This document shows positions 10,352 to 24,573 of a stretch of DNA of 24,573 nucleotides, in pieces. The position numbers were made by a program, and so were the translations under genes. The notes beneath the pieces are model-generated. The model saw only the letters and a list, made by a program, of their open reading frames with translations, had not been told where the DNA came from and searched no databases. This stretch comes from Armatimonadota bacterium. GTDB lineage: Bacteria > Armatimonadota > Zipacnadia > Zipacnadales > UBA5352. Within the stretch, counting starts at the first letter, position 1. The number at the start of each line of letters is the position of its first letter. The DNA lies in NCBI GenBank assembly GCA_034722055.1, contig JAYENL010000241.1:1-24573 (forward strand), read 5' to 3'.

Positions 10352-12061
10352 ATGCGCATCAGCTACGCACACGCACTGGTGTGCGCGGTGGGCCTGCAGG
10401 CGCTGTGCGGCCGGCTCTCAGCGCAGCCGGCGACCATCAGGCCCTATCTGGCTGAGCAGGGGGTGGAGGTGGACGCCTCCGGAGTCCTGCTGCGGCGCGA
10501 CGACGGCCAGGTCGTGGCGACATTCCGGGCCCCGCGCGACGGCGTCTACTCGGTGGGCGTGGCCCTGGAGGGCGAGAGCGTCACGCCGCTGGCGCCGGGC
10601 CTGACGGAGTGCAGGGCGGAGGACCTGGCGGAGCCGCTGGTGCTGCGCTACCCCTACGACTGGACCTACCACGAGAAGCGCAACGTGCTCAATCTTCCGC
10701 GTCTGGCGGCTCCGGGGCTGCTCATCGGGGAGTGGGGCGTCGCCGCCGACACCCACGACCTGTGGTCGCTGCGGCTTGAGGGCACCGACGATGGCCGCGT
10801 GCGGGCCATCCTGCTGGCGCACCGGTACCGCAACGATGGCGGGGATGCTGCCACCGCCGATCTTCACCTCGCTGCCGGCGAGGAGGTCACGCTCCGCATC
10901 CGCACTGCCGAGGGCCAGGATGCCTCCTGGGCGCTTACGCGCAGCGGTGAGAGGCGGCCCATCGACGGCCTCATGATGCAGGTCGCCTATCGGGGCTGGA
11001 CGGCCATTCACTACGAGCCCGAGCACTACCGGCGCATTGCAGAGGCCTGCGAGGGCGTCTACGACTGGATCATCGTGCGCGAGAATGCCACCCGAGACTG
11101 GATCCCGCCCATCCTGCACCAGCGCGGCATCAGGGCGCTGGCCTATCAGTACATCGGGGCGCTCCGCCGCTACTCGCCCCAGGTGACCGAGGCGCTTGAG
11201 GCCGAGTTGGGGATGCAGGGCGCGGGCGGGCAGCTCTATACCGGGCCATACTCGCCGGATGGCCCGTGGCTGCTGGCGGACATCCGCAGGCCCCAGGTCC
11301 GGGAGCTGTTCGTAGCCCGCGCGGCGGAGGCCGTCGAGGCCGGCTTCGACGGCATCTTCCTGGACGGCTCCATCTTCTGGCCCGACGCCACCGGCCGGCG
11401 CGGCGGCATCGTCCCCGGCGCCGAGCACTCCCTGGCCTGGGCGCACTGGGAGCTGCTGTCGGAGATCGTCGGGGCGGTCCACGAGGCCGACGAGGACGCC
11501 GTGGTGGGCGTGCTCGGCAACGACTACTACGACGCGCTGAGCGCGGCCGACTTCGTGCTCAAGGAGCGCATGTACTTCGCCTGGGACCAGTTCGCGCGCG
11601 AGCTTCCTGACAGGAGGACCAAGGTCCGCCAGGACCTGGACGTGGGCTTCGAGCGCGGCGAGGCGCCGCTGGTGCCCACCCGCCTGGCCTACGGCGTGAA
11701 GGGCTATAGCTCCATCTCGGTGCGCACGGCGCGGCACTTCGTCCGCGAGCCGACCGGGCTGTGGTACCTGGGCACCGGAGATCACACGCCCGAGCTGCTC
11801 GACGAGTGGCTGGACGCCATCGTGGCCCACGCCACCGAGGGCCTGCACGTGACGGAGATCGACCCGCCGGACTGCTGGCTGCACTTCGGGGGCCGCGATA
11901 CGATCTGGGCCGACCGGGCCTGCCGCATTGAGCTCTCGGGGCCGGCATGTCTGGCGGACGAGAATGGGACATGTCAGGGCTTGCACGGGACGCCCCTTGC
12001 GCTCGAGGCCGAACGCAGATACCGTCTGCTGCAGCAGTGTCCGGGAGGCGATCAGCAGTGA
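10352..12061 (+). CDS. Secreted hypothetical protein with putative TIM-barrel glycoside-hydrolase-like domain
   Basis: GGAGGTGA RBS; signal-peptide-like N-terminus; 'LADIRRPQVRELFV....AVEAGFDGIFLD' pattern seen in GH-like (beta/alpha)8 domains; native codon bias. Family not assignable by eye. Confidence 0.6.
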   Translation: MRISYAHALVCAVGLQALCGRLSAQPATIRPYLAEQGVEVDASGVLLRRDDGQVVATFRAPRDGVYSVGVALEGESVTPLAPGLTECRAEDLAEPLVLRYPYDWTYHEKRNVLNLPRLAAPGLLIGEWGVAADTHDLWSLRLEGTDDGRVRAILLAHRYRNDGGDAATADLHLAAGEEVTLRIRTAEGQDASWALTRSGERRPIDGLMMQVAYRGWTAIHYEPEHYRRIAEACEGVYDWIIVRENATRDWIPPILHQRGIRALAYQYIGALRRYSPQVTEALEAELGMQGAGGQLYTGPYSPDGPWLLADIRRPQVRELFVARAAEAVEAGFDGIFLDGSIFWPDATGRRGGIVPGAEHSLAWAHWELLSEIVGAVHEADEDAVVGVLGNDYYDALSAADFVLKERMYFAWDQFARELPDRRTKVRQDLDVGFERGEAPLVPTRLAYGVKGYSSISVRTARHFVREPTGLWYLGTGDHTPELLDEWLDAIVAHATEGLHVTEIDPPDCWLHFGGRDTIWADRACRIELSGPACLADENGTCQGLHGTPLALEAERRYRLLQQCPGGDQQ

Positions 12062-15000
12062 CCCGATACGTCGTGCTCGCCGCTGTGACCGCGCTTGTGC
12101 TCCTGGCACTGGGCCAGGCGACGGCGCCGGCCCAGACCATCGCACCTGAGGCCGGCGAGTGGTACGGGCAGACGCGCAACGGGGGCTTCGAGGCGGGGGG
12201 CGAGCTGCCCGAGTTCTGGCATCGCTTCCCGCCGCAGGAGCAGGAGTGGGGCATCTGCCGGCGCGACACCGAGGATGCGCACTCCGGGGAGGCCAGCGGC
12301 CTGCTCGTCAGCGAGGCCAAGCACCCGCCGGGCAAGGCCCCCGTGCAGTGGAACCGCTACGGCCTGCCTGTGGAGGGCGGCACCTCGCTGCTGGTCAGCT
12401 ACTGGGTCAAGAGCGACGGGCGCTGGGAGGGCCGCGCCGGCGCGCACTTCTATGACGCCGACGGCAACCACCTGGGCTATGAGACTCTCGATCCGCGCCA
12501 GGACACCACCGAGTGGACGCACGTGCAGGGCCTCATCCCGGTGCCCGAGCGCGCCGCGACGATGGGCTTCGCGCTCTATGGCGCCGATGAGCAGACCACC
12601 CGCTACGATGATGTCGTCTGCCTGGGCACGCCCTCTGTGGAGGCCGTCCGCGCCGCGCCACGGCTGGATGGAGTGCTCGATGACGGCTGCTGGCCGGACG
12701 AGCGGGCCATCACGCAGTTCATCGTGCACACCGGCGAGCGCCTGCCGACCTCGCAGCCCCGAGCGTGGATCGCCTACGACGACGAGGCGCTCTACGTAGC
12801 CTTCCAGTGCCCGCACCCGGGCGGTGCGGACCTGAAGGCCGACGCCACCGAGCACGATGGCGACACCTGGCTCGACGACTCCATCGAGGTGTTCCTCGAC
12901 CCCTGGCACGAGCACGACGATTACTACCAGCTCTGCGTCAACTGCCTGGGCGTAATCCGGGACACCCACCGCAAGGACACCGCGTGGGAGTCCGGTGCCA
13001 CGGCCTCGGTGCAGCGCCGGGACGACCGCTGGACGGTGGAGCTGGCGATCCCCTTTGATGCGCTGGGCCTGGACATGCGCGTGGGCGAGAGCTGGGGGAT
13101 AAACCTGGTGCGCAACGACCGCGTGAGAGGGGAGACCTCGACCTGGTCGCTGGAGGCCTTTCACCGCCCGGAACGCTTCGGCAACGTCGCCATGTCGCCG
13201 AACGTGACCCGCTACAAGCTGGCGGCCCTGGCGAGGCGCCTGCCGGAGTTGCAGCGCCGCTTAGCGGCGCTGCAGGCCGACGTGGGCCCCCTCCGGCTGG
13301 CGGAGGACGCGCGGGCGGCGGTCGAGCAGCAGCTTGCTGCGGCGAAGGCCGCGCTCACGCGGCTGGGGGAGGCCGCGGCGGAGCCACGCCGGCTCAGCGA
13401 GGATGAGTGGGGGAGCCTGCACGAGAGCTATGCCAGCATCGACACTGCGTTGCGGGAGGCGCGAACCATGGCGCTGCAGGGAGTGCTGCGGAGCGGCCCG
13501 GAGGGCTTCGGCGTGGCCATCGCCGGGCCGCTGCACAAGATCCGGCGGGAGGGCGAGGAGACCGAGGGCATCCTGGCCGACCACGTCGAGATGACCGCGG
13601 CGCGCGATGAGGCGGAGTCCTTCCAGCTCGTGGTGGTCGCCGGGCAGCAGGCGCTGAGCGGCGTGGAGGTGCAGGCGCCGCCGCTTCGCGGGGAGGGCGG
13701 CCAGATTCCGCTCACGTGGCGCATCGTGGACTACGTGGAGACCGCCGACCCCGGCTACGATGCCGAATACGTCGGCTGGTGGCCCGATCCGCTGCTGCCC
13801 GGGGCACCCTTCGACGTCGAGGCCGGACAGCGCCAGCCCGTCTGGTTCACCGTGGAGGTGCCGCCTGACGCCGCACCCGGCGAGTACTCGACGGAGGTCA
13901 CCGTCAGCCACGGCCAGCAGTCCGTGAGCGTTCCGGTGAGCCTGCGCGTGCGCAGCTTCCGGCTGCCTCGTCCGGGCACGCTGGCGACGGCCTTCGGGCT
14001 CTACGCCGGCGGGCTGGCCCGCTGGTGGTGGGAGGGCAAGCCCTACGAGGAGCACATGCCCATCGAGATGTTCCGCGACTGGTGCGAGTTCATGGGCCGC
14101 TATCGCCTCACGCCCAAGAACATCGCGCGGGAGTACCTCAGCCGCGGGACCGGCTTCTACCGCACCGACATCGAGCCCGGCAAGCCCATCACGGTCGATA
14201 TGAGCAATCTGCAGAAGACCGTGGCGCCGCTCGCGAGTGAGTACTTCGCACCGTACTCCTTCTGTCTGCATCGCCTGCCGACTGCCGGCAGCATGGACAA
14301 CTCCGCGCAGGGCACCGACCCGGAGGTCGCGGCGGCGATGTGCAAGGCCTACGCCGAGGAGTGGGAGCGGCAGGGCCTCCCGCGCGAGGTCTACATCTAC
14401 GGCTACGATGAGCCCAAGCCCGATCACTACCCGCAGCTTGTCGCGAACTATCGGGCCATCAAGCAGGCGGTGCCCGACTACCCCATCATGCAGACCATCA
14501 GCGACCCGGAGCCCGAGGAGCTGGTGGGGCTGGTGGACATCTGGTGCCCGCTGAGCCCGCGGGTGCTGGGCGACTTCTACCGACAGCGCCGCCGGGCCGG
14601 CGACACGCTGTGGATGTACACCTGCTGCGGTCCCAAGCCGCCGCACGCCAACTTCTTCGTGGACGAGCCGGCCATCGACCACCGCATCCTGTTCTGGCAG
14701 GCCCGGCAGGCCGGCGCCACCGGCTTCCTCTACTGGTTCGTCGCCTACTGGACCGGCCTGCCAAACGCCTCCGGCGACCAGCCGCACTTCCCGGACGTGC
14801 CCATCCACATGCGCGACCTGGGCACCTACGAGCGGTATAAGGACAACGGTGACGGCGTGCTCCTCTGGCCCGGCCGCGACCGTCAGCCGCTGGCCTCGAT
14901 CCGCCTGGAGTGCATCCGCGACGGCATCGAGGACTACGAGTACCTCGGGATTCTGTCTCGGCTGGTGGAGCGCGCGGAGCAGCTTTCCGCGGATGAACGA

Positions 15001-15165
15001 CCCGACGGCCACCTGCTCGCCGAGGCGGAGGCGCTGTGCATCGTGCCGGAGGAGATCTCGGAGAGCATGACGAGCTTCACGAAGAACCCGCAGGTGCTGC
15101 TGGATCGCCGCGAGGCCGTCGGGGATATGATCGAGCGGCTGGGCGAGGCGATCGCCGCCGAGTAG
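12058..15165 (+). CDS. Secreted multidomain putative glycoside hydrolase (CBM4/9-like + CBM9-like + coiled coil + GH123/DUF4091-like)
   Basis: GTG 12058 overlaps the upstream TGA (GTGA) with GGAGG RBS; signal peptide; NGGFE; LDGVLDD..W/YDDEALYVAF/DSIEVFLDP/WTVELAIPF; ARDEAESFQLVV, WPDPLLP, PVWFTVEVP.DAAPGEY, YDEP, GDGVLLWPG, SIRLECIRDGIEDYEYL. Confidence 0.75.
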   Translation: MTRYVVLAAVTALVLLALGQATAPAQTIAPEAGEWYGQTRNGGFEAGGELPEFWHRFPPQEQEWGICRRDTEDAHSGEASGLLVSEAKHPPGKAPVQWNRYGLPVEGGTSLLVSYWVKSDGRWEGRAGAHFYDADGNHLGYETLDPRQDTTEWTHVQGLIPVPERAATMGFALYGADEQTTRYDDVVCLGTPSVEAVRAAPRLDGVLDDGCWPDERAITQFIVHTGERLPTSQPRAWIAYDDEALYVAFQCPHPGGADLKADATEHDGDTWLDDSIEVFLDPWHEHDDYYQLCVNCLGVIRDTHRKDTAWESGATASVQRRDDRWTVELAIPFDALGLDMRVGESWGINLVRNDRVRGETSTWSLEAFHRPERFGNVAMSPNVTRYKLAALARRLPELQRRLAALQADVGPLRLAEDARAAVEQQLAAAKAALTRLGEAAAEPRRLSEDEWGSLHESYASIDTALREARTMALQGVLRSGPEGFGVAIAGPLHKIRREGEETEGILADHVEMTAARDEAESFQLVVVAGQQALSGVEVQAPPLRGEGGQIPLTWRIVDYVETADPGYDAEYVGWWPDPLLPGAPFDVEAGQRQPVWFTVEVPPDAAPGEYSTEVTVSHGQQSVSVPVSLRVRSFRLPRPGTLATAFGLYAGGLARWWWEGKPYEEHMPIEMFRDWCEFMGRYRLTPKNIAREYLSRGTGFYRTDIEPGKPITVDMSNLQKTVAPLASEYFAPYSFCLHRLPTAGSMDNSAQGTDPEVAAAMCKAYAEEWERQGLPREVYIYGYDEPKPDHYPQLVANYRAIKQAVPDYPIMQTISDPEPEELVGLVDIWCPLSPRVLGDFYRQRRRAGDTLWMYTCCGPKPPHANFFVDEPAIDHRILFWQARQAGATGFLYWFVAYWTGLPNASGDQPHFPDVPIHMRDLGTYERYKDNGDGVLLWPGRDRQPLASIRLECIRDGIEDYEYLGILSRLVERAEQLSADERPDGHLLAEAEALCIVPEEISESMTSFTKNPQVLLDRREAVGDMIERLGEAIAAE

Positions 15166-15187
15166 CCGGTCGGCAGTGACGAAGACG

Positions 15188-15226
15188 AACGGCAAACGGC
15201 CGGGGGGCTAAAGACGCCCCCGCTTC
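15188..15226 (-). repeat. Degenerate copy of the REP-like element at 71-109
   Basis: Exact 16-mer AACGGCAAACGGCCGG shared with 71-86, followed by a GGGGGC...GCCCCC hairpin and CGCTTCG (CGCTCCG in the first copy). Confidence 0.55.
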
Positions 15227-18478: not shown

Positions 18479-21097
18479 TCATTGCTCCGGCATCAGCGCC
18501 CGGCGAGCGTCCGAGTCGGTGGGCTCATAGCTGAACTCCTCGTGCACCAGGGCGATGACGTCCAGGATGGGGCTCTCCAGCGGTCGGCTCTCGCGGCCGG
18601 TGACCCGCAGCGTGTGGGTGCCGGCCTCCAGCTCCAGTCGCACCGGGCCCTCCCACAGCCAGGTGTCGTAGGTCCCGATCCGGTTGCCCAGGCGGATGAG
18701 CTCTTCGGGGTCGTCGGGATCGCGCAGGAAGAAGCTGTTGGAGTTGGTGTCCCTGTACCGCGCGCGGATCCACAGCAGCCAGCGGCCACCCTCGGGCAGC
18801 TCCACCTCGTACTCCGCCCAGTGCTGCGGGCCGGTGTCGATGCTGAAGGGCCCCGAGGGCAGCAGCGCGCCGCCGATGCAGCCATCGAGCGCCAGGCCGG
18901 CCTGCTCGGCGGTTGCCAGGCTTCCCTCGATCCGCTGCGGCTGCCCGGCGTCCACGAACACCATCTGGGGGCGGATCGGCGCGCAGCGCGCCCGCCGCAG
19001 AGCCATGCGGATCTCCCCGCGGCTGATGCCGTCGCAGTGCATGAACACGCGCGTGGTCACCGGCACCACCACCTGGGCGCCGGGCTGGACCTCGACCTGG
19101 TGCGGCTGCCCGCGGTAGTCGGTGAACTCCAGCCGCCCCGGGTCCAGCGAGAACTGGATGCTGGCCCTGCCGGCCACCGGCGCCAGCGATACGGTCGTTA
19201 CTCCATCGTAGCGCTCGGTCATGAAGGCCCGCACGAGGTGGCTGGTGCCGCCGACGTAGGGCATCTCGCGCGCGGCGAGCAGCCGCGGCTCGGTCCCCTC
19301 GCGCTCCACCAGCATGAAATCCTGCCGCGGCTGAAGCAGGCGCTGCTTGACCTCGTCGGGGAAGGTGCCCGCGAACTTGTGGTGCTCGTAGCGGCTCATC
19401 AGGTGCAGGATGGCGTCCAGGCACGGGACGCGCTCCATGCGGTCCACGTTGGTGAGAATGGAGTAGGCGGAGTCGGTGGCCAGCGCCCTGGCGCACAGGT
19501 ACTCTACGTCATCCACCTGTGTGGCTCGAACGTGCTCTCTCGGCGCCCTGAGGGGGAACCAGCCCAGGTCCGCCACCATCAGCTCCCGCTGCGCCCGCGG
19601 CCAGGAGCGCTCCACGGCGTCATCCACCTCATCCTTGTAGCTGGGCGAAACCCAGAAGTAGTCGCGCTGGCCGACGCGGGTCATCAGGTGCCACGAGAAG
19701 GGCGCCGAGGCGGCCATCTGCACGATCTGCGGCTCGCGATCCAGCTTCTCCACCACCGCCATCTGGGCGTTGGAGGTCGTCCACCAGCGCGGTGGATGCA
19801 CGTCCTCGGCGCCGTCGAAGTAGATCCAGTCGAAGCCGGCGGCGTTGTAGGTGCGAGCGATGTCGGACGTGTGCCGGTCGAGCAGATCGGTGGTCTGGTC
19901 GATGATGAAGATGCCCCGGCTCTCATCCGTCTTCACGTGAGCCACCTGGGCGCCGGGCTCGTGATCCGCCGGCTCTGTCCCGTAGGCGCCGCGGGTCACG
20001 CCTGTGAAGCCGAACGGCTCCTCCAGCGACAGCGCGGTGTAGGTCATCAGCTCGTCGTCGATGCGGATGTCTCGCGTGCCCTGGGGCACGGGCCAGTCGG
20101 TCGGCGGCCCGGTGGTGACGATGCGGTCCCCGTCGGCCGGCAGTGGCTCGGCCAGGCCCAGGTGCAGGTCCTCCCAGAAGCTGCCCACGTCCCCCGCCTC
20201 GGTATAGGCGCTGTGCTTGGGGACCTTGGAGGAGAACATGTGGGCGCCGGCCAGCAGCTCGGCCTGGTGGACGCGATCCACCGTCTCGCGGAGCTGATCG
20301 ATGCCCCCGGGGAAGGTGCTTTCCGGCACAGCGTAGTGCCGGCCGAAGTGCCCCCACGTGCCGTGCAGGATCAGGATAGAGCCGAAGCCGCCCCGCTTCG
20401 CCCAGTCGATGACCCTCTCGGCATTCTCGTGCGAGACGCCGCTGATCATCAGGTAGCTGCCCCGCGCGGCGTCGGAGCGCTTGGCCTTCATGCCGACCGG
20501 AATGCCGAACAGCTCCTCGGCCGCGGCGATGCGGTCGGGGATCTCGTCCCACGGCGCGGCCGCCACCGCCACGCGGGCCGGCCCCATCGACACCTCGGCG
20601 TGAACGCCGGCGTAAAGCCGCGGCGTCCCGTCGCCGGTTACCAGGCAGTCCTGCGTCTCCGCGATCATGGCCACTGCGGAGCCGTCATCCGCGCGCACCA
20701 CGTGCCGGTGGCAGCGCAGCTCCCCGCCCTCGCGCAGCGGCAGGCACAGCCAGTCGAGCCGCTCCGGCTCCCCCTCGACGGCCTGGAGCGTGAAGACCGC
20801 CAGCCCGCCGGCATCCTCCCAGGAGAGCAGCGCCGCCAGGTCGCCGCCGAACTCCACGCGCATCTGCCGGTCGCCGCCGCTCACGGCCGTGGCGTCGATC
20901 TGGCCATCGGCGGTGTGCGCCACCGCGACCGGCTCGCCGGGGCGGCCAAGCTCCCCCTCCGCGTGGCGTGAGGTGAGCGATACCAGTCTCCCATTCTCCC
21001 CGATCTCCAGCCGCAGGTCGGCGGTCTCGACGACGGTGGGCTCCGCGGCGGCGGCCGCGGCCAGGCCCAGCAGGACAGGCACGCATCGCATTGCCAT
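18479..21097 (-). CDS. Large secreted hypothetical protein, putative glycoside hydrolase with C-terminal CBM-like domain
   Basis: Signal peptide MAMRCVPVLLGLAAAAAA|E; FPGGIDQLRETVDRVH...AGAH and FDWIYFDGAE resemble clan-D-like TIM-barrel GHs; C-terminal WAEYEVELP..GRW.LWIR...SNSFF...LEAGTHTLRV...LDVIAL jelly-roll. Start at 21097 or 21091. Confidence 0.65.
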   Translation of the reverse strand: MAMRCVPVLLGLAAAAAAEPTVVETADLRLEIGENGRLVSLTSRHAEGELGRPGEPVAVAHTADGQIDATAVSGGDRQMRVEFGGDLAALLSWEDAGGLAVFTLQAVEGEPERLDWLCLPLREGGELRCHRHVVRADDGSAVAMIAETQDCLVTGDGTPRLYAGVHAEVSMGPARVAVAAAPWDEIPDRIAAAEELFGIPVGMKAKRSDAARGSYLMISGVSHENAERVIDWAKRGGFGSILILHGTWGHFGRHYAVPESTFPGGIDQLRETVDRVHQAELLAGAHMFSSKVPKHSAYTEAGDVGSFWEDLHLGLAEPLPADGDRIVTTGPPTDWPVPQGTRDIRIDDELMTYTALSLEEPFGFTGVTRGAYGTEPADHEPGAQVAHVKTDESRGIFIIDQTTDLLDRHTSDIARTYNAAGFDWIYFDGAEDVHPPRWWTTSNAQMAVVEKLDREPQIVQMAASAPFSWHLMTRVGQRDYFWVSPSYKDEVDDAVERSWPRAQRELMVADLGWFPLRAPREHVRATQVDDVEYLCARALATDSAYSILTNVDRMERVPCLDAILHLMSRYEHHKFAGTFPDEVKQRLLQPRQDFMLVEREGTEPRLLAAREMPYVGGTSHLVRAFMTERYDGVTTVSLAPVAGRASIQFSLDPGRLEFTDYRGQPHQVEVQPGAQVVVPVTTRVFMHCDGISRGEIRMALRRARCAPIRPQMVFVDAGQPQRIEGSLATAEQAGLALDGCIGGALLPSGPFSIDTGPQHWAEYEVELPEGGRWLLWIRARYRDTNSNSFFLRDPDDPEELIRLGNRIGTYDTWLWEGPVRLELEAGTHTLRVTGRESRPLESPILDVIALVHEEFSYEPTDSDARRALMPEQ

Positions 21098-21246: not shown

Positions 21247-22338
21247 ATGGGCTTCGAGCTCTACACCCACGAGCGCAACTTCGGCTGCCGGATCAGCGAT
21301 GAGTTCACCTTCCGGGGCATGCGCCTGCTCGTGATGGAGAACGAGCTTGTGCGGGTCACCATCCTGCTGGACAAGGGCACTGACATCTACGAGTTCCTGC
21401 ACAAGCCCACCGACACGGACTTCATGTGGCGGACGCCGCGGGGCGTGCGCAACCCTGAGAAGTCCCTGGACATGATCGCCCCCAGCGTGGGCCCCTTCGC
21501 GGACTTCTACGAGGGCGGCTGGCAGGAGTGTATGCCCAACGGGGGCCGCGTCTGCACCTACAAGGGCGCGGAGATGGGGCTGCATGGCGAGGTCTGGGGC
21601 GTGCCCTGGCGCTGCCGGATCGCCCGTGACGACCCGGATGTCGTCCAGGCCCGCACCTGGGTCCGCACCAACCGCACCCCCTTCCTGCTGGAGAAGACCT
21701 TCACGCTGCGCTCCGGGCGGCCGGTGCTGGAGATCGACGAGACCCTCACCAACGAGGGCCGGGAGCCCATGGACCTGATGTGGGGCCACCATCCCGCGCT
21801 GGGCAGCCGCTTCCTGATGGATGACTGCCGGGTGGACTGCGCCGCGCGCACGGTCGTCTGCGATCCCAGCGTCGGCGATGAGAGTCGTTTCGCGCCCGAG
21901 CAGCGCTTCGACTGGCCGGTGGGCACCACCCGCGGGAGCGAGGAGGTGGACCTCAGCGTGGTTCCGCCGCCCGAGGAGCGCGTGGATGACATGCTCTACC
22001 TCACGGACCTGGAGGCCGGCTGGTGGGCCGTCACCAGCCAGATCCGGGAGCTGGGCTTCGGCATCTCCTTCGACCTGGAGACCTTCCGGCACATCTGGAT
22101 GTGGATGCCCCTGGGCGGCTCCGATGGTTACCCCAGCTTCGGACGCTTCTACACTATGGCGCTGGAGCCGTTCAGCAGCTTCCCGGCCATCCTGTCCAAC
22201 GCCATCGAGGCCGGCACGCAGCTCACCATGGAGGCCGGGGAGCAGCGCAGCGCCTGGCTGCGCGCCGTCGCCTATGATGGCGTGCAACGAGTAGCGGGCA
22301 TCGACGAGGAGGGCGAGGTCACCCCCGGGGCGCCATGA
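21247..22338 (+). CDS. Aldose 1-epimerase / galactose-mutarotase-like protein (DUF4432-like)
   Basis: MENELVRVTILLDKGTDIYEF, GGWQEC.P, GLHGE, WGHHP, ALEP motifs; GAGGTGA RBS. Confidence 0.8.
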   Translation: MGFELYTHERNFGCRISDEFTFRGMRLLVMENELVRVTILLDKGTDIYEFLHKPTDTDFMWRTPRGVRNPEKSLDMIAPSVGPFADFYEGGWQECMPNGGRVCTYKGAEMGLHGEVWGVPWRCRIARDDPDVVQARTWVRTNRTPFLLEKTFTLRSGRPVLEIDETLTNEGREPMDLMWGHHPALGSRFLMDDCRVDCAARTVVCDPSVGDESRFAPEQRFDWPVGTTRGSEEVDLSVVPPPEERVDDMLYLTDLEAGWWAVTSQIRELGFGISFDLETFRHIWMWMPLGGSDGYPSFGRFYTMALEPFSSFPAILSNAIEAGTQLTMEAGEQRSAWLRAVAYDGVQRVAGIDEEGEVTPGAP

Positions 22339-22919
22339 GCGAGGCGAGGGCGGAACAGAGAGATGAGTCCGGGCGACCGCCGCTGGCGCTGCACGTCTGC
22401 TGCGGCCCGTGTGCCACCGCGGTGATTGAGCGCCTGAGGGAGGAGTGGGACGTGCGCGCCGTCTGGCACAACCCCAACATCCAGCCGCGCGAGGAGTACC
22501 TCAAACGCCTGGAGAGCATGCGCCGGGTGGCGGAGCTGTCCGACGTGCCGCTGGCGGAGCTGGAGCGCGACGTGGAGGCCTGGCGCGAGGCCTGCCGGGG
22601 CCTGATGGATGAGCCCGAGGGCGGCGCGCGGTGTGATGTGTGCTTCCGGATGCGGCTGGAGCGCACCGCCCGGTGGGCGGCCGAGCGGGGCATCGACGTC
22701 ATCACCACCACGCTGACCGTCAGCCCGCACACGCCCGCGGAGCGCGTCAACGCCATCGGCGAGGAGGTGGCGTGCGAGCACGGGCTGCGCTTCCTGGCCG
22801 AAAACTTCAAGAAGCGCCACGGCTTCCAGCGCAGCGTGGAGCTGAGCAAGCGCTGGGGACTCTACCGGCAGACGTGGTGCGGCTGCCTGCCCTCCAGGGA
22901 CGAGTCGCGGGGAGCGTAG
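22335..22919 (+). CDS. queH: Epoxyqueuosine reductase QueH
   Basis: LHVCCGPC, NPNIQP.EEY.KR, EPEGGARCDVCF.MRLE, TTLTVSPH, LYRQTWCGC; ATGA overlap with the upstream gene. Confidence 0.92.
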   Translation: MSEARAEQRDESGRPPLALHVCCGPCATAVIERLREEWDVRAVWHNPNIQPREEYLKRLESMRRVAELSDVPLAELERDVEAWREACRGLMDEPEGGARCDVCFRMRLERTARWAAERGIDVITTTLTVSPHTPAERVNAIGEEVACEHGLRFLAENFKKRHGFQRSVELSKRWGLYRQTWCGCLPSRDESRGA

Positions 22920-22957
22920 CGGCCGGCCTCGCATCGGCACCTCGATGGGCGCTCACG

Positions 22958-22978
22958 GCCCGGCCATCATGGCCGGGC
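22958..22978 (+). terminator. GC-rich inverted repeat after queH
   Basis: GCCCGGCCAT-C-ATGGCCGGGC; no U-tract. Confidence 0.35.
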
Positions 22979-23096
22979 TGGTGTCATGTACGCAGGTGCC
23001 CATGCCGCCCTCCGGAGAAACCGTGTAATGCTGGCGCGCCGCACGGTCACTTCAAGGGTGAGGAGATGTCCTCATTCGCATACAGGTGATCCTACG

Positions 23097-23624
23097 ATGA
23101 CGGACGCGCAGGTGGTGAGAAAGGTGCTGGCAGGCGACGCGGACGCCTACGCGCTGCTGGTGGAGCGACACCAGCGCGCGGCCGTGGCAGCGGCCCACCA
23201 CCTCACCGGCGACCGGGAGGCGGCGCGCGACATCGCCCAGGACGCCTTCGTTGACGCCTGGCGTGGGCTGAACGGACTGCGCGACCACTCCAAGTTCGCC
23301 GGATGGCTGTTGGGGATCATCCGTAACAAGTGCCGGGGCTATCTGGCGAAGCTGCAGCCGGACGTCGTTCCGCTCGATGACGCCCCGGCGCCGAGCACCG
23401 ACCCCCCGCAGCCGGAGGGTGGACCGCTGACGGAGATGCTTGGGAAGCTGCCACTGAAGGACCGGGAGATCCTGGCGGCGCGGTACATCGCCGAGATGCC
23501 CTACACCGAGATCGCCCGGGAGATGGACATGACCGTCAACAACGTGCGCGTGCGCTGCTGCCGGGCCAGGCAGCGGCTGCGCGAGCTGATGGCCGAGACC
23601 GGAGAGGAGGGCGAGGGCTCATGA
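23097..23624 (+). CDS. ECF-family RNA polymerase sigma-70 factor
   Basis: GDADAYALLVERHQ, ARDIAQDAF..AW, KFAGWL..I.RN (region 2); LP.KDREIL..RY...MPY.EIA..M.....NVR.R..RAR..L (region 4); AGGTGAT RBS before ATG 23097. Confidence 0.92.
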   Translation: MTDAQVVRKVLAGDADAYALLVERHQRAAVAAAHHLTGDREAARDIAQDAFVDAWRGLNGLRDHSKFAGWLLGIIRNKCRGYLAKLQPDVVPLDDAPAPSTDPPQPEGGPLTEMLGKLPLKDREILAARYIAEMPYTEIAREMDMTVNNVRVRCCRARQRLRELMAETGEEGEGS

Positions 23625-24573
23625 CCGCGGGCAACCCATGTGAGAGCTGGATGGAGCGCATCTCGGCCTGGGAGGATGGTGAGGCCGGGCTGATCGACCG
23701 GGTCCTCGTGCCCCTGCACCTGCGGCAGTGCGGGGCCTGCCGGGAGTGGCTGGAGCAGGTCCGCGAGGATGAGAGCGCCTTCCGGGAGGCCTTCCTGGAG
23801 GCCGCGGATGAGCAGGACGACATCGCCGAGAGCGTGATGGCCCGGGTCGCCAAGCAGGCTCGGACGCAGGAGCGCCGGGAGGCGGCGAAGCAGCGGCGTC
23901 CGGTCTTCACGCTCATCGAGCTTTTCGTGGTTGTGGCGATCGTGGCGACCCTGGGGGCGATCCTCTTCCCGGTCTTCGCGCGGGCCCGCGAGAAGGCCCG
24001 CCAGGCCTCGTGTCAGAGCAACATCAAGCAGCTTACGCTGGGCACACGGATGTTCGCGGAGGACTACGACGGGCGGCTCCCAGCCGCGGCAACCTGGCGC
24101 GACGACGTCATGCCCTACGTGAAGGATGAGGAGCTGTTCGAGTGCCCCTCCGACGAGATCGACAACGTGACGTATGCCCTCAGCCCCTTCGTGGCGGGCC
24201 GGAACATCGAGGACATCGAGAACCCTGAAGAGACCGTGATGATCTACGAGGTGGGGGAGGACGGGCAGCCGGTCTTCCCGCACAACGGCGGCGCGAACTA
24301 CGGCTTCGTTGACGGGCACGTGAGGTGGCTCAGCGAGGAGAATGCGCCGGCGGAGCTGAGGAGCACCGGCTTCGCTCCCCCTACGCAGAGCTACGGGATC
24401 GCCGAGCGGCTGAAGCTGGCCTATGAGGCCTCGGTCGAGGTGGTGGTGGATAACCTCTATCGCGCGGTGCTGCAGGCGGAGGCGGCCGTCCACGAGTACG
24501 GTGGCTTCATCCTCAGCTCCACGCTCAACGGCCGCTGCGGGCAGGCCAGCCTGACCGTCAAGGTCCCCACCGC
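23621..24573 (+). CDS. Partial (runs off the window): zf-HC2/ZAS anti-sigma domain + prepilin-type DUF1559/H-X9-DG module + DUF4349-like domain
   Basis: Translated by hand; open from ATG 23621 (ATGA overlap with the sigma stop) to the window end. MTAGNPCESWMERISAWEDGE...HLRQCGACR; RRPV-FTLIELFVVVAIVATLGAILFPVFARAREKARQASCQSNIKQL; LFECPSD; HNGGANYGFVDGHV; LAYEASVEVVVDN...GGFILSS...ASLTVKVP. Confidence 0.85.
   Translation, partial: MTAGNPCESWMERISAWEDGEAGLIDRVLVPLHLRQCGACREWLEQVREDESAFREAFLEAADEQDDIAESVMARVAKQARTQERREAAKQRRPVFTLIELFVVVAIVATLGAILFPVFARAREKARQASCQSNIKQLTLGTRMFAEDYDGRLPAAATWRDDVMPYVKDEELFECPSDEIDNVTYALSPFVAGRNIEDIENPEETVMIYEVGEDGQPVFPHNGGANYGFVDGHVRWLSEENAPAELRSTGFAPPTQSYGIAERLKLAYEASVEVVVDNLYRAVLQAEAAVHEYGGFILSSTLNGRCGQASLTVKVPT

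Follow-up and report, generated by a model that had tools for sequence, protein, structure and literature searches.

Gene content and extent of the locus

The window (the whole stretch of 24,573 nucleotides that was analysed) is an entire contig, C241, from a 6.1-Mb assembly with 68% GC. At its right-hand end lie an ECF sigma factor gene and, directly after it, the gene of an anti-sigma factor, with the following features:

23024..23051, + strand: predicted ECF-type autoregulatory promoter, TGTAATG-N17-CACT (from motif conservation)
23097..23624, + strand: ECF sigma factor, 175 aa (Pfam Sigma70_r2 at aa 21-86 and Sigma70_r4_2 at aa 111-161; TIGR02937 over its cut-off)
23621..23860, + strand: class I zinc anti-sigma domain, aa 1-80 (zf-HC2; C7, H33-x3-C37-x2-C40 at nt 23717-23740, helix 4 at about aa 61-80)
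23903..23977, + strand: pilin-type membrane helix with a degenerate site V95-F96, Glu+5 (E100, nt 23918-23920) and Pro+22 (P117) (from hydropathy)
23978..24334, + strand: compact DUF1559/H-X9-DG head, predicted to be extracytoplasmic with a type IV pilin-like fold (SBP_bac_10, TIGR04294, structure model)
24413..24573, + strand: start of DUF4349 (Pfam, aa 265-316; the rest is in G000:C329, L001:3-611)

The stop codon of the sigma factor gene and the start codon of the anti-sigma gene overlap (ATGA at 23621-23624), as expected from the translational coupling proposed in the initial annotation, which had also pointed out that the second gene has no stop codon within the window. The gene is indeed cut by the contig end. 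The last 127 bases of the window are the first 127 of contig C329 and occur nowhere else in the genome, and the anti-sigma frame runs on in C329 to a stop codon, which gives a protein of 478 aa in total. Its parts follow each other in the order zinc anti-sigma domain, pilin-type helix, compact DUF1559/H-X9-DG head, DUF4349 and second membrane helix, and its full-length homologues measure 462-480 aa. In assemblies of public sequencing runs, a contig from run X3 covers positions 22800-24366 unbroken and one from run X1 covers the whole stretch and extends beyond it, although the four runs belong to one study and X1 and X2 may be the very source of the window, so that they are weak as independent support. 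The possibility of an assembly chimera or a singleton, raised at the outset, was ruled out by these contigs, which span the fused domains, together with the full-length homologues. Runs X3 and X4 show strain variants at 24367-24436, immediately ahead of the contig end, which may be why the assembly breaks between C241 and C329.

The residues and coordinates given in the initial annotation (C7, H33, C37, C40, F96-TLIE at nt 23906, CPSD at aa 175, H221 at nt 24281 and DG at 24311-24316) are all correct. The HMM scan that it proposed placed zf-HC2, SBP_bac_10, H-X9-DG and DUF4349 over their cut-offs, while the prepilin cleavage model TIGR02532 remained under its own.

The sigma factor and the zinc anti-sigma domain

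The closest relatives of the sigma factor among solved structures are SigW (PDB ID: 5wuq) and the RpoE/AlgU types, with E-values of about 1e-13, and among the NCBIfam matches listed the superfamily model alone exceeds its cut-off. At the N-terminus of the anti-sigma protein, zf-HC2 is found at aa 7-41 with 28.6 bits against a Pfam cut-off of 22.2, and H33, C37 and C40 are conserved in at least 90% of 28 aligned rows, in agreement with the zinc motif recognised earlier. The segment following the motif had been described as a charged linker, a description that does not hold: most of it is helical and belongs to the anti-sigma domain (H38-62 and H68-90 in the structure model of the homologue P0002), and sigma contacts fall at aa 50-80 in the model of the complex.

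This complex, modelled from residues 1-95 and the sigma factor, obtained a score of 0.72, compared to 0.00 for the best of three controls; the mark used for this score is reached by 51 of 78 solved pairs and by 2 of 108 mismatched ones. At least 79% of the contacts are common to the runs, and the pLDDT of the partner is at least 76. In the model, residues 61-80, including the near-invariant V72, contact region 2 of the sigma factor, and both sigma domains contribute residues to the interface, which fits the dual interface described in PMC7406223. The high score may reflect the likeness to ECF/anti-sigma complexes that have been solved. The model places the N-terminal domain on the sigma factor, as was predicted, and as a class I anti-sigma domain it would hold the co-encoded ECF sigma factor. 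In one family (L129, L132, L134, L135 and L138) the anti-sigma proteins have no zinc ligands, and keep the Glu+5 helix and the pilin head.

The pilin-like head, DUF4349 and the C-terminus

The head is recognised by two models, SBP_bac_10 (PF07596) at aa 121-159 (45.3 bits, cut-off 23.3) and TIGR04294 (H-X9-DG) at aa 220-238 (30.4 bits, cut-off 19). A complete DUF1559-like body had been proposed; CPSD and H-X9-DG are present as stated, but the body is a compact form, in which the Pfam match covers 38 of the 268 model positions (2-39). The Cys, Tyr, His and Asp of the head are invariant over 28 rows of 29-76% identity. A model of aa 89-249, built with a 70-row alignment, has a pLDDT of 94 and consists of a 51-residue helix with a small head. 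The top 15 matches of this model among 48,161 chains in VIA-align are all pilins or pseudopilins, the best being PilA4 from T. thermophilus (PDB ID: 6xxd; Z 7.6, rmsd 3.5, 120 aligned residues), where a Z below 8 counts as moderate; pilins also rank first in Foldseek, but with E-values of 0.014 or weaker. The model of the head and its uniform list of matches show a likeness to the pilin fold. Fold searches with the whole protein are dominated by the helical hairpin of DUF4349 (PspA, ESCRT-III and designed bundles, Z 9-11) and give nothing specific, and a search of the ESM Atlas returned leads under 0.9 only.

DUF4349, which had been expected from about nt 24410, was found from 24413 and is completed in C329, where L001:3-608 matches positions 17-210 of 213 of its profile (PF14257). 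A second hydrophobic segment at about aa 437-470 forms the C-terminal membrane helix. With a folded domain at the N-terminus and this second membrane helix, the anti-sigma protein is unlikely to be assembled into a filament.

The compact head is not confined to this setting. In P0165, P0166, P0169, P0173, P0180, P0181 and P0205 it stands in tandem, or behind ordinary signal peptides or non-pilin membrane helices, contexts which make it a mobile outer domain in these genomes. Other departures were seen in single sequences: the anti-sigma genes L007:1495-2876 and L124:1790-3332 are split into two frames within DUF4349 (by a frameshift or an assembly error), and in P0007 a CARDB of different composition replaces DUF4349 from about residue 278, on a single short contig that may be a chimera.

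Loss of the prepilin peptidase site

The hydropathy peak at aa 92-123 is the sole hydrophobic segment in the part of the anti-sigma protein encoded in the window, as had been noted. Class III signal peptides have a short leader ending in Gly-1 before Phe+1; the helix here is preceded by a 95-aa domain and has Val at -1, and TIGR02532 gives 10.3 bits, below its cut-off of 16.3. In type IVa prepilins, Gly-1 is followed by Phe+1 (PMC3584216). Among the 47 pilin motifs found in the genome by a pattern that leaves position -1 free, 44 have Gly and 2 have Ala at this position, and the single Val is that of the anti-sigma gene. The same deviation is seen in the 73 fused relatives (sequences under 95% identity), of which 70 have no Gly-Phe junction. 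Arg is their commonest residue at -1 (20/73), and Gly, Ala or Ser stands before a hydrophobic +1 residue in 9 of the 73. Large residues at -1 block cleavage by prepilin peptidase. The three relatives with Gly-Phe and Glu+5 are L012 (= P0134), P0137 and P0150; two of them exceed the TIGR02532 cut-off, and in the head tree they are not one supported clade. Gly-Phe is present in 130 of 166 pilin-only matches, a set recruited by its likeness to the FTLIE stretch of the window.

Processing of the protein by prepilin peptidase was therefore rejected, given the Val at -1, the TIGR02532 score and the rarity of Gly-Phe in the relatives. The link between sigma release and pilin processing that had been suggested finds no support, as the Gly-Phe junction is absent here and in 70 of the 73. 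The genome itself encodes two A24 peptidases, several PilC/T2SSF proteins and 40 pilin-module ORFs with Gly-Phe, so that the machinery is present, but nothing connects it with this locus.

While positions -1, +1 and +2 drift, Glu+5 is conserved in the anti-sigma proteins. It is kept in 60 of the 73 fused relatives and, once 10 further loci are added, in 66 of 83, compared to only 3 of 14 aligned stand-alone neighbours. In the same 83 rows, of which a few divergent ones have an uncertain register in the helix alignment, Arg+2 is found in 47 and the combination R-x-x-E in 44. The role of Glu+5 may be an R-x-x-E salt bridge, or a contact with pilins or platform proteins.

Distribution of the fusion and linkage to ECF genes

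A search with residues 1-150 gave 13 other proteins matching at least 93% of the region, one of them from an Armatimonadota bacterium. A profile search over 401 Armatimonadota genomes found at least 19 loci, our own included, with a match that extends from the N-terminus across the head; this is a lower bound as four candidates were scored per genome. An ECF gene lies directly upstream in 18 of the 18 other fusion loci, two of these ECF genes being partial at the edge of a locus or contig. Both the joining of a pilin-like module to an anti-sigma domain and its linkage to an ECF gene, as claimed from the window alone, are consequently conserved, the former also in the full-length homologues.

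In a search starting from the sigma factor, 41 of the 401 genomes have a match with an E-value no higher than 1e-27; of the 30 top-scoring loci, which were taken further, 15 were new. In all 15 the next gene encodes an anti-sigma domain. The gene has a full DUF1559 head and no DUF4349 in ten of them, a remnant of the helix with DUF4349 in two, a GspG-like head with DUF4349 in one and DUF4349 with no pilin part in another, and in the last it is cut by the contig end. The GspG-like case (L130:1911-3515) belongs to the same ECF clade and carries a pseudopilin head instead of DUF1559 (TIGR01710, E 2.4e-7, below the cut-off). Nine of the ten closest sigma loci with titles come from Armatimonadia, Ca. 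Zipacnadia, Armatimonadota/Armatimonadetes and Fimbriimonadaceae, and the tenth is titled only as a bacterium; none of them adds to the counts of loci above. When 80 loci related by their sigma factor were considered, the fusion followed the 10 with at least 45% identity and none of the 70 weaker ones, in a test which used profiles trained on Armatimonadota and may miss planctomycete forms.

A profile search of 50% cluster representatives covered the best 150 of 6,370 at E 1e-30 or better. Among 277 proteins, 56 combine zinc domain, pilin module and DUF4349, 8 have zinc domain and pilin module (some of these are fragments) and 13 have zinc domain and DUF4349; the head is truncated in 10 of the 73 fused relatives. 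As some lines have lost the head and some DUF4349, the sigma factor and the anti-sigma domain are the constant parts of the system, and the head, which is missing or degraded in several lineages, cannot be indispensable to all members. Insertion of the pilin module into an older scaffold of zinc domain and DUF4349 was considered as an origin of the fusion and is not established, as head-less and DUF4349-less forms both occur. The tree of the heads, built from 117 sequences over 121 columns and with stars on 16 of its 114 inner branches, is unrooted and gives no order of events; with 14 label changes, of which starred branches force 2, it is compatible with one origin of the fused head as well as with several.

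Promoter motif and candidate targets

The exact motif TGTAATG-N17-SACT is found in 14 of 17 ECF upstream regions, our own included, and variants of it in 2 more, with a spacer of 17 in all 16. Outside the training set, 12 of 15 further ECF loci have the motif at 12 bits or more, a level reached in 0.17% of random 450-base windows of the genome. The site of the window scores 25.7 of 28.3 bits when itself left out of training, and with that score it ranks second in the genome, between a site in C256 (26.7 bits) and sites in C88 (21.4 bits) and C329 (19.2 bits). The C88 site falls inside an ORF.

The C329 site (TGTGATG-N17-CACT) lies directly before the gene that follows the anti-sigma gene (L001:692-1219; 655-1219 with the motif). 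It codes for a membrane protein of 175 aa that likewise has the compact H-X9-DG head and lacks Gly-Phe, and it is the only one of the 62 ORFs of the genome with a DUF1559/H-X9-DG pilin module to have a site of at least 12 bits. No motif of at least 12 bits was found before any of the 40 Gly-Phe prepilin genes of the genome, so that feedback on ordinary prepilins is not seen.

Behind the best site of the genome is a gene for a multi-pass membrane protein (G000:C256:64337-65922; L044:1500-3026 / L084). It retains the signal peptide and the initial residues typical of a DUF2330 protein, while the DUF2330 domain, with which its orthologues begin, is absent (about 500 aa compared to about 840 aa in the orthologues), and there is no ATG, GTG or TTG at the expected start. 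Its C-terminal domain matches no Pfam or NCBIfam model and the DUF1559 profile only weakly (probability 8%); we take it to be GspG-like from a 35% alignment with the corresponding head in L130 and from motifs known for GspG. The promoter motif precedes three of its five closest orthologues (22.1 bits in G285, 19.9 in G307 and 17.8 in G131) and is not found in G041 and G140. The ECF gene is present in G285 and G307, and a search for its orthologue in G041, G140 and G131 found none; the site in G131 thus counts against a tight link between motif and ECF. In G362, an exact site precedes a gene for a membrane protein with a DUF1559 head.

Judging by the flanks examined, 6 of the 19 fusion genomes (G000, G067, G259, G307, G382 and G387) have 1 to 5 clustered genes for uncleavable heads beside the operon. 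Inside the post-operon clusters of G307, G382 and G387 no site of at least 11 bits was found, and the one site in the G259 cluster is on the opposite strand. In four of the six genomes the head of a neighbour falls together with the local anti-sigma head or close to it (SH-aLRT 88-95), a position in the tree that points to local duplication. The neighbour head of the window's own operon does not group with the anti-sigma head of the window, in a tree that is poorly resolved. In L074, L081, L082, L083 and L146, 3 to 5 genes for membrane proteins with an uncleavable DUF1559 head stand in a row immediately behind the ECF/anti-sigma operon.

Relaxed promoter patterns searched over 79 genomes gave counts like those of the reversed control. 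Genome-wide, relaxed motifs are thus at background, and sites away from the locus rest on their position and conservation. Judging from these motifs, the sigma factor appears to drive its own operon and a few genes for membrane-anchored proteins with an uncleavable pilin head.

Comparison with known systems

Like RsiW/SigW of B. subtilis (PDB ID: 5wuq), ChrR of R. sphaeroides and RseA/RpoE of E. coli, the anti-sigma factor is encoded by the +1 gene of the ECF and begins with a helical H-x3-C-x2-C domain; it shares with them a membrane anchor and, in the model, contacts with sigma 2 and sigma 4. It differs in that the anchor and the first outer domain are derived from a pilin, and in having a second membrane helix at the C-terminus. 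Anti-sigma factors with a zinc-binding domain, DUF4349 and two membrane helices, also encoded at +1, have been predicted for ECF25, ECF218s8 and ECF281s3/s4 (Casas-Pastor et al. 2021, supplement of PMC7826278); the group descriptions compared here, from the earlier part of that supplement, mention no pilin or DUF1559 module. The locus is accordingly a variant of the ECF/class I anti-sigma switch, whose zinc-domain/DUF4349 part is already in print as a prediction in which the pilin module was not found. To this our analysis adds the full gene, counts for Glu+5 and for the peptidase site, a promoter, and candidate targets that have the pilin head in common with the anti-sigma factor. A literature search for DUF4349 with anti-sigma factors, DUF1559 with prepilins and a pilin module in anti-sigma factors, with subscription journals mostly outside its scope, found nothing beyond the PMC7826278 predictions. 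Elsewhere, DUF1559 is called a solute-binding-like family (PMC2754498), and a tail-anchored form of DUF4349 is described in PMC10924467.

With the DUF1559 (PF07596)/TIGR04294 prepilin-like proteins, the module has in common the Glu+5/Pro+22 helix, FARAREKARQ-x-SC, the CP motif, H-X9-DG and a pilin-like fold. Unlike them, the anti-sigma protein lacks Gly-Phe, carries a cytoplasmic domain of 95 aa where they have a short leader, and combines a shorter head with a membrane anchor at the C-terminus. Two known regulators respond to pilins: PilS/PilR of Pseudomonas, likewise a membrane regulator (PMC6058289), and AlgU/MucA, which is induced by truncated PilA through a protease cascade (PMC3684759). 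In both, a kinase or protease cascade is combined with a separate pilin, whereas here the pilin module is within the anti-sigma factor, for which pilin sensing would be hypothetical.

Proposed mechanism and alternative explanations

The architecture, the ECF linkage, the loss of the processing site, the fold likeness and the conserved motif lead us to a reading in which inhibition, proteolysis, signal and regulon are inferred. The protein is probably a class I anti-sigma factor that crosses the membrane twice and whose pilin module is co-opted and uncut; it would release its sigma factor upon proteolysis and let it drive its own operon and a few pilin-head genes. According to the complex model, the cytoplasmic zinc domain would hold the co-encoded ECF sigma factor at the membrane. 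The first membrane helix and first outer domain would be a co-opted DUF1559/H-X9-DG module, left uncut by prepilin peptidase and outside any pilus, and followed by DUF4349 and the second membrane helix. Class I anti-sigma factors release their partner through an outer cut followed by an RseP-type cut. The case of MucA is described in PMC3684759. By analogy, a signal in the envelope that acts on the helix or the head of the pilin module would bring about an outer cut and then an intramembrane cut by an RseP-type (M50) protease, such as are encoded in the genome, and so free the sigma factor. Going by motif conservation, the freed sigma factor would transcribe its own operon from TGTAATG-N17-SACT together with a small set of genes for uncleavable pilin-head proteins, in which case the sensor and some of the outputs have one kind of domain in common.

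It is conceivable, though on balance we doubt it, that the module is a sensor of the pilin pool or of the assembly platform, in which the uncut helix pairs through Glu+5 with DUF1559 prepilins or with a PilN/PulM-type protein and thereby controls how stable the anti-sigma factor is or which conformation it takes, in the way that PilA acts on PilS. This would be compatible with proteolytic release and specifies its signal. The retention of Glu+5 in the anti-sigma proteins compared to the stand-alone neighbours fits such a role, as do the pilin heads encoded by the putative target genes, the peptidases, PilC/T2SSF proteins and Gly-Phe ORFs of the genome, the weaker binding of PulM by the E5A variant of PulG (10.1101/2022.09.21.508927) and the direct binding of PilA by PilS in the membrane (PMC6058289). 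On the other hand, the frequency of Arg+2 and R-x-x-E suggests a simpler reason for the retention of Glu+5, a salt bridge within the helix at the membrane edge, the Gly-Phe prepilin genes are without the promoter motif, and no pilus machinery gene was noticed beside the examined loci. An extended form of this idea is equally doubtful: an ECF switch found throughout the Armatimonadota, with an uncuttable pilin-mimic anti-sigma factor that would read the prepilin pool or the assembly platform via the Glu+5 helix and the head, and whose outputs would be membrane-anchored decoys with a pilin head, several of which seem to be copies of the head of the sensor.

The pilin module could also be a borrowed anchor or spacer, with sensing taking place in DUF4349 or in the anti-sigma domain, which we regard as improbable. 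The two-helix zinc-domain/DUF4349 anti-sigma factors predicted for the ECF groups above (PMC7826278) are in line with it, and close relatives (P0161, P0162, P0170, L121, L124 and L131) lose the head and keep DUF4349. The reverse loss is however as common, as seen from the 8 zinc domain-head proteins without DUF4349 (fragments among them) and the 10 of 15 new loci; moreover, the Cys, Tyr, His and Asp of the head are invariant, and L130 carries another pilin head instead. Finally, release of the anti-sigma/sigma complex by a prepilin peptidase cutting at the cytoplasmic face, which would couple sigma release to pilin processing, is very improbable: the peptidase site is near that face (PMC3584216) and a small-residue junction survives in the few relatives mentioned above, including three with Gly-Phe and two over the TIGR02532 cut-off, but the Val at -1 here, the lack of Gly-Phe in 70 of 73 relatives, Arg as their commonest -1 residue and the fact that the three intact members are not one supported clade speak against it, and constitutive cutting would give no regulation.

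Co-option of an uncut pilin module into a class I anti-sigma factor, the reading we prefer, would mean that the pilin fold has been reused as a fixed membrane domain after loss of the processing site. The switch is of a familiar type, and the genomes examined are mostly fragmented assemblies. The DUF1559/H-X9-DG proteins, of which a genome in these lineages encodes dozens, have to our knowledge no known function. With an anti-sigma factor that contains this module, a clear-cut promoter and candidate targets, experiments on the family become feasible in a laboratory host, where a reporter on TGTAATG-N17-CACT would read out whatever acts on the pilin head.

Other genes of the window

Four long ORFs (575, 370, 644 and 829 aa), at 10418-15195 on the reverse strand and 18482-20971 on the forward strand, have no Pfam match; the first three of them are found upstream of an MlaE/ABC/MlaD operon that has the same orientation. 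Between these ORFs and the ECF promoter, at 21247-22919 on the forward strand, are an aldose-epimerase-like (DUF4432) gene and queH, both ordinary.
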